A stretch of 64,000 nucleotides of DNA, from NCBI RefSeq assembly GCF_055900595.2, contig NZ_CM148325.1; one strand, written 5' to 3'. Positions within the stretch are counted from its first letter, which is position 1. Every line of letters begins with the position of its first letter. Positions 12,280-48,206 of the stretch are shown here, piece after piece. Below the pieces are notes generated by a model that ran no database searches, was not told the origin of the DNA, and was given only the letters and a program-made list of their open reading frames with translations. The translations under genes and the position numbers were made by a program.

Positions 12280-14350
12280 TCTGGCCGCGATGCTGCGCCT
12301 GCCCGCAAACCTGAAATCGACACAATGGCAGATCCTTGCCGGACCGATTTTGATCCTGTTGATCTTGTCGATGATGGTGCTGCCACTGCCCGCATTCATA
12401 CTCGACCTGTTGTTTACCTTCAATATTGCCTTGTCGATCATGGTGTTGCTGGTGGCGATGTTTACCCAGCGCACGCTTGAGTTTGCTGCGTTTCCGACCA
12501 TTCTGTTGTTTACCACGCTGTTGCGTCTGGCACTTAACGTGGCTTCAACCCGTATCATTTTAATGGAAGGGCATACCGGCGCGGCGGCGGCAGGGAAGGT
12601 GGTCGAAGCGTTCGGTCACTTCCTCGTTGGTGGCAATTTCGCTATCGGTATCGTGGTGTTTGTCATTCTCGTGATCATCAACTTTATGGTCATTACCAAA
12701 GGTGCCGGGCGTATCGCAGAAGTGGGTGCGCGCTTTGTTCTCGATGGTATGCCGGGTAAGCAGATGGCGATTGACGCCGACCTTAACGCCGGATTGATTG
12801 GTGAAGATGAGGCGAAAAAACGCCGCTCCGAAGTGACTCAGGAAGCCGATTTTTACGGCTCAATGGACGGGGCAAGTAAGTTTGTTCGCGGCGATGCCAT
12901 CGCCGGGATCCTCATCATGGTCATTAACGTTGTCGGCGGGTTGCTGGTCGGCGTGCTGCAACATGGCATGAGCATGGGACACGCGGCGGAAAGTTATACG
13001 CTATTGACCATTGGCGACGGTCTGGTGGCACAAATTCCGGCGCTGGTGATTTCTACCGCCGCGGGGGTCATCGTTACGCGTGTCAGCACCGATCAGGATG
13101 TTGGCGAGCAGATGGTGAATCAGCTTTTCAGTAACCCAAGCGTTATGTTGTTAAGCGCCGCCGTGCTCGGTTTACTCGGCCTGGTGCCTGGAATGCCGAA
13201 CCTGGTATTTTTGCTGTTCACTGCCGGATTGCTCGGGCTGGCCTGGTGGATACGCGGACGCGAACAAAAAGCGCCTGCCGAACCCAAACCGGTAAAAATG
13301 GCAGAGAATAATACCGTTGTCGAAGCGACGTGGAACGATGTACAACTGGAAGATTCTCTGGGAATGGAAGTGGGTTATCGACTGATCCCGATGGTCGATT
13401 TCCAGCAGGATGGTGAGTTGTTGGGCCGTATACGCAGTATCCGCAAGAAATTTGCCCAGGAGATGGGATTTCTGCCGCCAGTGGTGCACATTCGCGACAA
13501 TATGGATCTGCAACCTGCCCGCTATCGCATTTTGATGAAAGGCGTGGAGATTGGCAGTGGTGATGCTTATCCGGGGCGCTGGCTGGCGATTAACCCTGGA
13601 ACCGCTGCCGGGACGTTACCTGGTGAGGCGACCGTCGATCCGGCATTTGGCCTGAATGCTATCTGGATTGAAAGTGCGCTAAAAGAACAGGCGCAGATTC
13701 AGGGGTACACAGTGGTTGAGGCCAGCACGGTGGTAGCAACGCATCTTAACCACCTCATTAGCCAGCATGCCGCAGAGCTGTTTGGTCGTCAGGAGGCGCA
13801 ACAGCTGTTGGATCGCGTCGCCCAGGAGATGCCAAAGCTGACGGAAGATCTCGTTCCTGGCGTCGTCACGCTCACCACACTGCATAAAGTGCTGCAAAAT
13901 CTCCTCGATGAAAAAGTACCGATTCGCGATATGCGCACCATTCTCGAAACGCTGGCGGAACATGCGCCCATCCAAAGCGATCCACATGAATTAACCGCCG
14001 TCGTGCGCGTGGCGTTGGGACGGGCGATTACCCAGCAGTGGTTTCCTGGCAAAGATGAAGTCCATGTTATTGGCCTCGATACACCGCTGGAACGTTTGTT
14101 ACTACAGGCGCTGCAGGGCGGGGGAGGACTGGAGCCAGGGCTGGCGGATCGTTTACTGGCGCAAACTCAGGAAGCGCTATCCCGTCAGGAGATGCTGGGT
14201 GCGCCGCCAGTATTGTTGGTGAACCACGCGCTGCGACCATTATTGTCTCGCTTCCTGCGCCGCAGCTTGCCGCAGTTAGTGGTCCTGTCGAATCTGGAAC
14301 TGTCTGATAACCGACATATCCGCATGACGGCGATAATTGGCGGCAAATAA
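12272..14350 (+). CDS. flhA: Flagellar type III export gate protein FlhA (692 aa)
   Basis: ORF track 12197..14350 trimmed to ATG 12272 (MSNLAAMLRLPANLKSTQWQILAGP...); overlaps flhB end by 8 nt. Confidence 0.94.
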   Translation: MSNLAAMLRLPANLKSTQWQILAGPILILLILSMMVLPLPAFILDLLFTFNIALSIMVLLVAMFTQRTLEFAAFPTILLFTTLLRLALNVASTRIILMEGHTGAAAAGKVVEAFGHFLVGGNFAIGIVVFVILVIINFMVITKGAGRIAEVGARFVLDGMPGKQMAIDADLNAGLIGEDEAKKRRSEVTQEADFYGSMDGASKFVRGDAIAGILIMVINVVGGLLVGVLQHGMSMGHAAESYTLLTIGDGLVAQIPALVISTAAGVIVTRVSTDQDVGEQMVNQLFSNPSVMLLSAAVLGLLGLVPGMPNLVFLLFTAGLLGLAWWIRGREQKAPAEPKPVKMAENNTVVEATWNDVQLEDSLGMEVGYRLIPMVDFQQDGELLGRIRSIRKKFAQEMGFLPPVVHIRDNMDLQPARYRILMKGVEIGSGDAYPGRWLAINPGTAAGTLPGEATVDPAFGLNAIWIESALKEQAQIQGYTVVEASTVVATHLNHLISQHAAELFGRQEAQQLLDRVAQEMPKLTEDLVPGVVTLTTLHKVLQNLLDEKVPIRDMRTILETLAEHAPIQSDPHELTAVVRVALGRAITQQWFPGKDEVHVIGLDTPLERLLLQALQGGGGLEPGLADRLLAQTQEALSRQEMLGAPPVLLVNHALRPLLSRFLRRSLPQLVVLSNLELSDNRHIRMTAIIGGK

Positions 14351-14742
14351 TGAGAACCTTATTAGCAATATTATTGTTTCCGCTGCTGGTGCAAGCCGCC
14401 GGGGAGGGGATGTGGCAGGCAAGTAGTGTAGGAATTACGCTAAATCATCGCGGTGAGTCGATGTCGTCTGCGCCTCTTTCTACGCGACAACCTGCTTCAG
14501 GATTGATGACGCTGGTAGCGTGGCGTTATCAGCTTATCGGCCCGACACCTTCAGGACTGCGGGTTCGCTTGTGTTCGCAATCTCGTTGTGTCGAATTAGA
14601 GGGGCAGAGCGGAACCACCGTGGCCTTTTCCGGTATAGCGGCAGCAGAACCGTTGCGCTTTATCTGGGAAGTGCCTGGCGGTGGGCGGTTAATTCCGCCG
14701 CTGAAAGTACAACGTAATGAAGTGATTGTGAATTATCGCTGA
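14350..14742 (+). CDS. flhE: Flagellar protein FlhE (130 aa, signal peptide)
   Basis: ORF track; MRTLLAILLFPLLVQAAGEGMWQ...; start overlaps flhA stop (TAATG). Confidence 0.93.
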   Translation: MRTLLAILLFPLLVQAAGEGMWQASSVGITLNHRGESMSSAPLSTRQPASGLMTLVAWRYQLIGPTPSGLRVRLCSQSRCVELEGQSGTTVAFSGIAAAEPLRFIWEVPGGGRLIPPLKVQRNEVIVNYR

Positions 14743-14801
14743 AGGACAAAAAAATTACGCGCTCGCGAGTATGTTTAATAACTCAGTGAAAAAGGCTCGA
14801 T

Positions 14802-14843
14802 GTTTTGTTGCAATTATTTATCAGGAATAGCTTGCAACAAAAC
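14802..14843. terminator. Long inverted repeat between convergent flhE and yecT (putative bidirectional terminator)
   Basis: 12-bp perfect arms gttttgttgcaa / ttgcaacaaaac around an 18-nt AT-rich loop. Confidence 0.5.
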
Positions 14844-14861
14844 ATGCCAAAAATATGTGAA

Positions 14862-15371
14862 TTATCCTCTTGTCAAAGGGCTTGGATAAAAATCTTCAGA
14901 GTTACGGTATAGCTGCAACTGGCGAGTTCGCGTATTGGTCTGTATGATCATACATGAGAGCCATTCTGATTCAGAATAAGGGTCACTTAAATCCTGAACG
15001 TCCTCATTTGAAAGGATTAATTCACATTCTTTGTCCCTAAAATCCAGCCAGGCTCGCTGTGATTTTTTAAGCAAGTTAAGTTGTTCGGTATCAGGTTTTT
15101 TTACACCTGTGCGTGGCACTTGTTCTATATAACGATAAGCTTCACCATAGGCTTTATTTAATTGCGCATCGACGAGATTGTATTCTTGTCGCAGGCATGA
15201 TTTGATCACGTTAATGTCACTATCATCATCTGAATTTTTTTGCCAACAATCTTTGATGGCTGAAATGTCATGGTCGTTTACTATAAGCGTATCTTCTGCG
15301 TAAACCTGGCAAGAGATAATGCCTAATGTTAATACAAGAAATTTAAACACTGCGGTATTCCTTAAATTCAA
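14862..15371 (-). CDS. yecT: YecT-like periplasmic protein, DUF1311 / LprI lysozyme-inhibitor-like (169 aa)
   Basis: ORF track; signal peptide MNLRNTAVFKFLVLTLGIISCQVYA; position between flhE and argS as in K-12. Confidence 0.8.
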   Translation of the reverse strand: MNLRNTAVFKFLVLTLGIISCQVYAEDTLIVNDHDISAIKDCWQKNSDDDSDINVIKSCLRQEYNLVDAQLNKAYGEAYRYIEQVPRTGVKKPDTEQLNLLKKSQRAWLDFRDKECELILSNEDVQDLSDPYSESEWLSCMIIQTNTRTRQLQLYRNSEDFYPSPLTRG

Positions 15372-15472
15372 CCGTTATCGTTTCCCTGGGGCCGGATATT
15401 ACGCTTCTGACTTCTTACCCAACAGTGAGAAAACGATGGCATGTCCATTTTCAGAATACATTTAGATGGCAA

Positions 15473-15506
15473 TAAAAAAGCCTGATCAGGTAACCCTGAT
15501 CAGGCT
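15473..15506 (-). terminator. Rho-independent terminator downstream of argS
   Basis: Perfect 12-bp stem agcctgatcagg/cctgatcaggct with taac loop; A-run on + strand gives U-tract on minus transcript. Confidence 0.75.
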
Positions 15507-15526
15507 TCACTCTCACGAAAAATCGA

Positions 15527-17260
15527 TTACATACGCTCTACAGTCTCAATACCCAGCGTATCCAGACCCAGCTTCAGCGTCTTCGCCGTCAGTTGTGCCA
15601 GTTTCAGACGGCTGTTACGCACTTCTTCGTTTTCTGCGCTGAGGATCGGGCAGTGCTCGTAGAAGCCAGAGAACAGACCGGCCAGATCGTACAGGTAAGC
15701 ACACATCACATGCGGCGTACCTTCACGGGCAACCACGGTGAGGGTTTCTTCAAACTGCAGCAGGCGAGCTGCCAGTTGCGCTTCACGATCTTCACGGATG
15801 ATTACCGGAGCTGCAGCCAGTTGCTCTTCGTCAATTTCTGCTTTACGGAACACGGACAATACACGCGTGTATGCATACTGCATGTATGGCGCGGTATTAC
15901 CCTCAAACGCCAGCATGTTGTCCCAGTCGAAGATGTAGTCCGTGGTGCGGTTTTTGGAGAGATCCGCATATTTCACCGCACCAATACCAACCGCGTTAGC
16001 CAGTTTTTCCAGCTCGTCGGCTGGCATATCCGGGTTCTTTTCTGCCACCAGACGGCGTGCACGTTCCAGGGCTTCATCCAGCAGATCGGCCAGTTTCACT
16101 GTACCACCCGCGCGGGTTTTGAACGGTTTGCCGTCTTTACCCAGCATCATGCCGAACATGTGGTGTTCCAGCGGTACGGATTCCGGTACATAGCCTGCTT
16201 TACGGACGATCGCCCATGCCTGCATCAGGTGTTGATGCTGACGGGAGTCGATGTAATACAGCACGCGATCGGCATGCAGTGTTTCATAACGATATTTCGC
16301 ACAGGCGATATCAGTGGTGGTGTAGAGATAGCCGCCATCTTTCTTCTGAATGATCACGCCCATCGGTTCGCCTTCCTTGTTTTTAAACTCATCAAGGAAT
16401 ACAACGGTCGCCCCTTCGCTTTCTACTGCCAGACCTTTGGCTTTGAGATCCGCCACAATTCCTGGCAGCATTGGGTTGTAGAGGCTTTCGCCCATCACGT
16501 CATCACGGGTCAGCGTCACGTTGAGACGATCGTAAGTGATCTGGTTCTGCGTCATGGTGATGTCGACCAGTTTGCGCCACATCTCGCGGAAATATTCGTC
16601 ACCGCTTTGCAGTTTTACCACGTAGTTACGTGCACGCTCGGCAAACTCTTCATCTTCGTCGTAATGCTTTTTCGCATCGCGGTAGAAACCTTCAAGGTCA
16701 GCCAGCTCCATTTCACCGGCGTTTTCCTGCTGCTGCTTTTCCAGCCATGCAATCAGCATACCGAACTGAGTGCCCCAGTCGCCGACGTGGTTTGCGCGAA
16801 TCACTTTGTGACCGAGGAACTCCAGAGTACGCACTGCTGCGTCACCAATAATGGTAGAGCGCAGGTGACCGACGTGCATCTCTTTCGCCACGTTTGGCGC
16901 AGAGTAGTCAACCACAATGGTCTGTTTTTCTGGCGTAGCAACACCGAGACGATCGGACGCCAGCGCCTGCTGAACATGTTCAGCCAGGAATGCCGGATCA
17001 AGGAAAATGTTGATAAAGCCTGGACCGGCGATCTCAACTTTGCTGGCGATACCGTTAAGATCCAGATGAGTCAGCACCTGCTCTGCTAATTGTCGCGGTG
17101 CCATACCCAGTTTTTTAGCAACTGCCATCATGCCGTTAGCCTGATAGTCGCCGAACTGAACTTTTGCTGACTGACGAACCTGCGGTTCGCAATCCGCAGG
17201 CGCGCCTGCCGCAATCATGGCCTGACGGACTTTTTCTGAGAGAAGAGCCTGAATATTCAC
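15527..17260 (-). CDS. argS: Arginyl-tRNA synthetase ArgS (577 aa)
   Basis: ORF track; [43 protein letters not shown]... class I HIGH motif (HVGHLRS). Confidence 0.97.
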
Positions 17261-31952: not shown

Positions 31953-31964
31953 ACATACGTAAAT

Positions 31965-31993
31965 GGCAAAAACCATCACCAATGGTTTTTGCC
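31965..31993. terminator. Strong hairpin between convergent accessory ORF and yebB (putative bidirectional terminator)
   Basis: Perfect 12-bp stem ggcaaaaaccat / atggtttttgcc with cacc loop; no clean U-tract on either side. Confidence 0.55.
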
Positions 31994-32029
31994 ATGATAT
32001 GCGACTCACACTGCTTCTGGCAGCCTGGT

Positions 32030-48161: not shown

Positions 48162-48180
48162 AAGTCAAAATGCCCGATCG

Positions 48181-48206
48181 AGGATCGGGCATTTTTGTAG
48201 CATTTT
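48181..48206. terminator. Bidirectional terminator between convergent eda and purT
   Basis: gcccgatc / gatcgggc hairpin, A-run before and tttttg after. Confidence 0.75.

Follow-up and report, generated by a model that had tools for sequence, protein, structure and literature searches.

Between flhE and yecT, two convergent genes of Escherichia coli, lies a spacer of 119 nt that holds a long inverted repeat, and the question raised by this locus is whether the repeat acts at the RNA level, as a transcript end for one or both genes, or at the DNA level, as a site for a protein. We addressed it in a stretch of 64,000 nt (NCBI RefSeq assembly GCF_055900595.2, contig NZ_CM148325.1), referred to below as the window; all coordinates are window positions, and the corresponding MG1655 coordinate is 1977322 minus the window coordinate. 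By this conversion, the palindrome lies at 1962477-1962522 of MG1655 and the U-run on the yecT-sense strand at 1962529-1962533. We propose, with modest confidence, that this palindrome forms the 3' stem-loop of yecT and is plausibly a non-canonical intrinsic terminator or a 3' stabiliser.

Geometry and folding of the inverted repeat

The features to which the text refers are the following, in the order of their coordinates. The annotation of matching E. coli genomes in RefSeq further places the end of flhA at 14350 and argS at 15527-17260 (minus strand).

14350-14742, plus strand: flhE, end of flhBAE, convergent to yecT (as annotated by RefSeq in matching E. coli genomes)
14756-15522: low-GC segment with H1, the palindrome, yecT, yecV and an argS-proximal hairpin, delimited by presence/absence
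14757-14772: H1, small GC hairpin TTACGCGCTCGCGAGT, followed in yecT sense by U7 (14755-14749)
14786-14793, minus strand: U-run UUUUUCAC, abutting the 3' side of the hairpin in yecT sense
14794-14848, minus strand: H2, the complete stem-loop of clamp, bulge, 14-bp stem and 18-nt loop with a short inner helix; proposed on the yecT-sense strand as a candidate terminator or 3' stabiliser hairpin
14797-14799: bulge of 3 nt, TCG on the plus strand and CGA in yecT sense, separating clamp from stem and variable between alleles
14800-14813: left arm ATGTTTTGTTGCAA; K-12-type strains carry T14804C
14814-14831: spacer or loop TTATTTATCAGGAATAGC, 18 nt, partly self-paired, the main site of polymorphism
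14832-14845: right arm TTGCAACAAAACAT
14849-14853, plus strand: A5 run, 3' of the hairpin in flhE sense, not conserved in E. whittamii and E1V33
14862-15371, minus strand: yecT (LprI/DUF1311 family), with its stop codon 13 nt before the hairpin (RefSeq annotation)
14921, plus strand: peak of a Rho region inside antisense yecT, equal to 1962401 on the MG1655 minus strand (PMC7815308, Supplementary file 2)

The initial annotation had reported a perfect palindrome with 12-bp arms and had assigned it the range 14743-14861, which is in fact the whole intergenic region. The palindrome is real, with arms of 14 nt rather than 12, which are 100% complementary and 18 nt apart; besides, a clamp, in which GGC (14794-14796) pairs with GCC (14846-14848) over the 3-nt bulge, lengthens the helix. 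Perfect 14-nt inverted repeats with a loop of at most 40 nt are expected by chance 0.02 times per 64 kb (Markov-1 resamples), and the 64-kb window holds only two of them. Other perfect inverted repeats in the window, at 31963-31995 and 48167-48196, are ATGGCAAAAACCAT / ATGGTTTTTGCCAT, whose loop is 5 nt, and a GC-rich hairpin that has a T-run behind it; both have short loops like ordinary terminators.

Folding energies, which had been suggested as a check, were in line with a stable structure on both strands. The 54-nt core folds at -20.2 kcal/mol on the plus strand (z=-5.75) and at -17.0 kcal/mol on the minus strand (z=-4.26), and on each strand 0 of 200 shuffles was equally stable. With the clamp, which contributes about -3.5 kcal/mol and pairs with a probability of 0.99, the full hairpin reaches -19.7 kcal/mol in yecT sense and -22.5 kcal/mol in flhE sense. 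The AT-rich loop described at the outset does measure 18 nt between the arms, with 13 of 18 positions A or T, but because it pairs internally the apical loop is just 5 nt on the plus strand and 7 nt on the minus strand.

The flanks of the hairpin differ between the strands. As the plus strand reads AAAAA-hairpin-AAAAA, with A-runs on both sides, and the minus strand UUUUU-hairpin-UUUUU, only the minus strand receives a U-run. In yecT sense, the clamp is directly followed by TTTTTCAC (14793-14786), with 5 U among the first 8 nt, while the flhE-sense tail on the plus strand, AAAAATATG / AAAAAUAUG, has no U-tract. The lack of a U-tract noted in the initial annotation is therefore correct for the flhE-sense strand and wrong for the yecT-sense strand, where UUUUUCAC abuts the hairpin; its suggestion that loop length and a missing U-tract fit a protein-binding site falls with the self-pairing of the loop and the U-tract of one strand.

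Further towards flhE, the small hairpin H1 folds weakly (-3.5 to -7.2 kcal/mol), and E. whittamii no longer has it. In Escherichia sp. E1V33, CGTGAGCACG replaces CGCGAGCGCG, a double change from C-G to U-A. From its sequence, H1 is a possible weak back-up terminator in yecT sense; we rejected the stronger claim of a second terminator, since the fold is too weak and its conservation poor.

Distribution with yecT and variation among alleles

The element follows the presence of yecT. A 401-nt query spanning the spacer matched 5342 of 5426 complete E. coli genomes, with full coverage in only 3549, and a 124-nt core was found by blastn (word size 11) in 3613 of the 5426 genomes, at a median of one place each. 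In E. coli the element stands beside yecT and is not present where yecT is missing. The segment to which both belong has a G+C content of 36-40%, versus 52-57% in its flanks, and is carried by about two thirds of E. coli; about one third, for example strains SF-173, Ecol_276 and CT282, have a 52-nt flhE-argS spacer instead, with an unrelated GC-rich hairpin, AAAAAAGCCGATGTC-tgcaat-GACATCGGC. Homology between the two spacer forms stops after the A-run at the flhE stop (~14755) and restarts at the argS stop (~15522). Outside E. coli, close YecT relatives were found in GTDB, scanned with one genome per species, only in E. whittamii and Escherichia sp. E1V33, where yecT likewise lies between flhE and argS; the scan also matched one contaminated MAG fragment. 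Across the 64-kb window, the arm motif matches only the two arms. A search for the element in phages gave no match, and the plasmid matches were chromosome-sized records or an E. coli fragment. Being single-copy, patchy, linked to yecT and without phage or plasmid copies, the element is a single-copy part of the patchily distributed yecT segment, which was probably acquired horizontally.

This distribution also bears on several candidate identities. Like REP/BIME elements, the palindrome is extragenic and lies in a 3' UTR between convergent genes, but it is A/T-rich, single-copy and unrelated to REPs in sequence. A REP/BIME, a dispersed repeat or a MITE was thus rejected, given one copy per genome in the blastn search (3613 genomes) and no phage or genuine plasmid copies. 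A search with the Rfam 15 covariance models gave best scores of 11-17 bits (E of at least 1.1), far under the gathering thresholds.

On metagenome contigs, homologues of YecT with about 60% identity occur in T6SS clusters, where they adjoin genes for Pesticin/CHAP-domain effectors, a second LprI gene, PAAR and IcmF/TssM. Since these homologues sit beside effector genes, the comparison suggests that yecT of E. coli is an orphan T6SS immunity-type gene. The palindrome was also sought behind the distant yecT homologues and none was found there; these homologues are operonic in the T6SS clusters.

To describe the variation of the element, seven distinct alleles were aligned, drawn from the window, K-12, four other E. 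coli types picked from the least similar matches, E. whittamii and E1V33. The arms and clamp vary at only 2 of 34 sites, in agreement with the conservation of the arms across strains that the initial annotation had proposed to examine, and the loop and bulge at 5 of 21. Among the other non-coding sites of the spacer, 18 of 90 are variable with E. whittamii excluded (Fisher p=0.06), statistics that are weak because the overall diversity is low; the contrast is much stronger with E. whittamii, whose flank is rearranged. The bulge occurs as CGA, CCA, GAA or GGA. In the MLI023K2-type allele, G1 has changed to U and A17 to G (loop numbering in yecT sense), on opposite sides of the loop, and each substitution adds a Watson-Crick pair, so that the stem grows from 14 to 16 bp and folds at -24.1 kcal/mol.

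The commonest form is the K-12-type allele, which is found in about 3200 of 3613 genomes (~89% of yecT-bearing E. coli, 98.4% identity) and differs from the window by T14804C in the arm and by T14854G. The arm substitution is an A to G in the 3' arm in yecT sense, giving U.G there and C.A in flhE sense; stability is about unchanged for the yecT-sense hairpin (-19.7 to -19.8 kcal/mol), while the flhE-sense hairpin is weaker (-22.5 to -18.8 kcal/mol). The window allele, with its perfect palindrome, is a minority in E. coli (390 of 3613 genomes, B-lineage laboratory strains among them). The perfect form is probably ancestral, as it is shared by E. whittamii and E1V33.

Across the seven alleles, standard pairs make up 98.6% of the pair cells in yecT sense, with four one-sided changes of U-A to U-G and two unpaired cells, and 96.3% in flhE sense, where all six changed cells are unpaired. 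A G.U pair is hence retained in 4 of 6 changed cells on the yecT-sense strand versus 0 of 6 on the flhE-sense strand, through three A-to-G events; about three substitution events thus underlie this bias between the strands (one-sided p ~0.125). No pair is altered on both sides among the seven alleles, which means that there is no classical covariation. The pattern of variation is suggestive of selection on base pairing, leaning to the yecT-sense RNA. The U-run is kept in every sampled E. coli allele and in E1V33 and is lost in E. whittamii (GCCGUUUAACC), where both arms are intact while the U-run and the downstream sequence have diverged, heavily so in the adjacent 50 nt. Whatever keeps the stem in E. 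whittamii would accordingly have no strict need of the U-run.

The hairpin as seen from yecT and from flhE

In yecT sense, RNA polymerase on the minus strand would pass the yecT stop codon and, 13 nt on, transcribe a 55-nt hairpin, whose 14-bp A/U-rich stem has three G-C pairs at its base, with UUUUU right after it. Because the UUUUU follows the hairpin directly, the two together could work as a Rho-independent terminator of the yecT transcript, and the yecT mRNA would be left with an exonuclease-resistant 3' hairpin. What the analysis shows is the structure and its significance, the link to yecT, the pattern of conservation and the difference between the strands; termination and 3'-end protection at the hairpin are what we infer from these.

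The yecT-sense strand has two properties of intrinsic terminators, a stable hairpin close after the stop codon and a U-rich tract directly 3' of the stem, and lacks the canonical geometry of a compact GC-rich stem with a loop of 3-8 nt. As in E. coli intrinsic terminators, a stable hairpin on a G-C base lies 13 nt past the stop codon and is followed by a U-run, UUUUUCAC. It differs from them in its long, A/U-rich stem (14 + 3 bp) with a bulge near the base, in its nominal loop of 18 nt, and in a U-run that has just 5 U and is lost in E. whittamii. A scan for consensus promoters and terminators made no call in the spacer; all that it flagged was the argS hairpin and two positions within flhE.

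Adams et al. 2021 (PMC7815308) give no curated 3' end from Term-seq at MG1655 19624xx-19625xx; argS, flhA and yecV are missing from their tables as well, so the absence at the hairpin says little. Besides, yecT is activated by BglJ-RcsB, which is required for its strong expression, and is partially repressed by H-NS/StpA (PMC3950696), so that its 3' end is expected to be invisible in standard conditions. In the literature, we found no earlier description of this hairpin, and the arm sequences gave irrelevant matches only. For the poorly studied yecT, a probable terminator or 3'-end structure is now supplied, of little import beyond annotation.

A bidirectional terminator had been suggested initially. 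A role at the end of transcription is indeed the best supported, but it would not be symmetric, as the U-run is present in yecT sense only. A classical bidirectional intrinsic terminator needs a U-run on both strands and was rejected for a palindrome that has one on the minus strand only. The palindrome resembles bidirectional terminators in being common to two convergent units and in folding on both strands; its flanks, in contrast to those of the classical type, are asymmetric, and it is the yecT-less strains that carry the classical type (AAAAAAGCCGATGTC..GACATCGGC). Ju et al. reportedly described, in 2019, collision-type bidirectional terminators between convergent genes. The palindrome is real and conserved, and its likeliest identity is a commonplace RNA stem-loop at the 3' end of the accessory gene yecT, a terminator in one direction, rather than a protein site or something new. 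By function, it would be grouped with intrinsic terminators and protective 3' stem-loops.

On the opposite strand, the hairpin is equally stable but has no U-run, so flhBAE would not be terminated intrinsically there. The flhBAE transcripts would probably read through the palindrome and be stopped by Rho inside antisense yecT, and the hairpin could then serve as their trimmed and protected 3' end. Bicyclomycin data include a region of Rho termination in flhE sense, classed as antisense to yecT (PMC7815308). Without bicyclomycin, 30 reads were counted upstream and 26 downstream, and with it 33 and 119 (Rho score 4.16, p=1.8e-5), in data of low resolution, with 800-nt windows and low counts (PMC7815308). 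The peak lies 73 nt beyond the hairpin, which suggests that flhE-sense transcription crosses the palindrome and is then stopped by Rho. The rise with bicyclomycin exceeds the upstream coverage, and part of it may thus stem from antisense promoters rather than from flhBAE read-through. The flhE-sense sequence just past the hairpin is not C-rich, and the first C>G region lies ~115 nt downstream.

In Rho-terminated E. coli mRNAs, steady-state 3' ends have been mapped just after stable stem-loops without U-tracts, and such stem-loops were argued to be able to switch between Rho-dependent and intrinsic modes through the U content downstream (Dar and Sorek 2018, PMC6061677). By analogy, this model fits the flhE-sense face of the hairpin and the E. 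whittamii variant. The flhE-sense strand does form, as in those mRNAs, a stable hairpin (-22.5 kcal/mol) without a U-rich tail, and the bicyclomycin-sensitive region, mapped at low resolution, peaks downstream of it; on the other hand, the sequence downstream of the palindrome is not C>G, and the commonest allele weakens the flhE-sense hairpin. In yecT-bearing strains, flhBAE would therefore be without an intrinsic terminator of its own, so that read-through into antisense yecT and dependence on Rho are to be expected, and, as E. coli has two flhE-argS spacers that are unrelated to each other, the formation of the flhBAE 3' end could depend on the strain. The locus offers a compact natural case in which one palindrome has a U-run for only one of two convergent units.

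Competing explanations

An explanation that overlaps with ours, and that we consider unlikely though worth keeping in mind, is that the palindrome is mainly an element of RNA stability: the hairpin would block the 3'-to-5' exonucleases PNPase and RNase II and set the steady-state 3' ends for one of the convergent units or for both, and transcription would be stopped farther downstream, by Rho or otherwise. The stability of the hairpin on both strands, the perfect stem of E. whittamii despite its lost U-run, the Rho region downstream on the flhE-sense strand and the U-less protective stem-loops of Dar and Sorek, with their easy switching of modes (PMC6061677), all agree with it. It does not explain why the U5 run is conserved in all sampled E. 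coli alleles and in E1V33, and it is at odds with the tables of PMC7815308, which report no steady-state 3' end beside the hairpin, and with the flhE-sense strand, where no C>G region follows directly.

About half as probable, in our view, is a boundary of the collision type, at which the hairpin pauses polymerases and both transcripts are freed by head-on and trailing collisions. Such a mechanism was proposed for E. coli convergent pairs that are neither intrinsic nor Rho-dependent, and the model of the Liu laboratory lets U-less hairpins act at convergent boundaries (bioRxiv 10.1101/2022.10.23.513370). The convergent genes and the folding of the palindrome on both strands would suit it. The Rho-dependent signal beyond the hairpin in flhE sense and the substitutions that keep pairing on one strand only argue against it, as does yecT itself, which is mostly silent in laboratory conditions, so that collisions of polymerases would be rare. 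Because E. whittamii keeps the stem perfectly after the loss of the U-run, one may go further and ask whether the purpose of the stem is not termination at all. We think it quite improbable that the stem is a boundary insulating flhBAE from yecT or, in another version, the first natural operator of the CytR type with a long spacer; as a boundary element, it could act through pausing and polymerase collision next to yecT as an H-NS-silenced, horizontally acquired orphan gene of the immunity type.

The palindrome may also be a functionless relic, which was inherited with the yecT segment or arose as a DNA-level by-product in a young locus that recombines as a block; this we hold to be scarcely less probable than a collision boundary. 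The segment is low in GC and patchy, overall diversity is low, and in E. coli CAVP819 both an insertion in the loop and the loss of yecT are tolerated. A relic would hardly have kept its arms intact in E. whittamii while the adjacent 50 nt diverged heavily, nor does it account for the pair of substitutions that extended the stem or for a perfect 14-bp repeat far above chance. The strain CAVP819 carries an IS1 in the palindrome loop (~14825); yecT is deleted there, and yecV and argS remain.

Least probable among these explanations, and in our opinion very improbable, is that a dimeric or tetrameric protein binds the DNA here, such as a CytR-like regulator of the LacI family. What speaks for it is the dyad, perfect over 14 bp and better conserved in its arms than in its spacer, and the likeness of TTGCAA and GTTGCAAT to CytR half-sites: a TTGCAA core lies in each arm, GTTGCAAT equals 7 of 8 positions of the CytR octamer, and CytR tolerates long, variable spacers in vitro (PMC3454398). 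The site, however, has a stop codon on either side, and nothing in the spacer resembles a promoter. The TGCAA-TTGCA spacing of 18 bp exceeds the canonical 2-3 bp by ~1.5 turns, placing the half-sites on opposite faces of the helix, and CytR requires flanking CRP sites, none of quality being present. With the phasing wrong and both CRP-quality sites and a promoter missing, we do not take a CytR operator as the main reading. Variation points the same way, since the commonest E. coli allele no longer has an intact dyad but retains an RNA G.U pair, and since the conserved stretch comprises all 14 nt as well as the GGC/GCC clamp, not just the 8 bp of a half-site. The arm motif, moreover, has no further copy in the window, and genomes carry the element once.

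Two further DNA-level identities were considered and rejected. The stretch TGGCATGTTTTGTTGCA (14831-14848, minus strand) resembles a sigma54 -24/-12 promoter with one extra spacer base: the yecT-sense TGGCAT-N6-TTGCA is one base too long compared with TGGCAC-N5-TTGCA. The core sites of an integron attC are RYYYAAC and GTTRRRY; the arms do not fit these cores, and yecT has its own promoter. The sole sigma54 ChIP site linked to yecT falls inside argS (Bonocora et al. 2015, PMC4591121).

Three minor features were noted around the spacer. The small ORF yecV, of 14 codons (MSIFRIHLDGNKKA; 15441-15485, plus strand), overlaps the argS terminator hairpin. That hairpin is canonical (15477-15508, minus strand) and consists of GAAGCCTGATCAGG-GTTA-CCTGATCAGGCTT followed by a T-run. 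Finally, an exact 11-nt direct repeat, TGTGAATTATC, flanks the spacer at 14727-14737 and 14856-14866, each copy overlapping the 3' end of its gene, flhE or yecT. A target-site duplication was rejected for this repeat, as each copy appears native to its gene end: similar ends occur in yecT-less flhE and in the homologues from T6SS clusters. Since both copies look native to flhE and yecT, the repeat is probably a coincidence.
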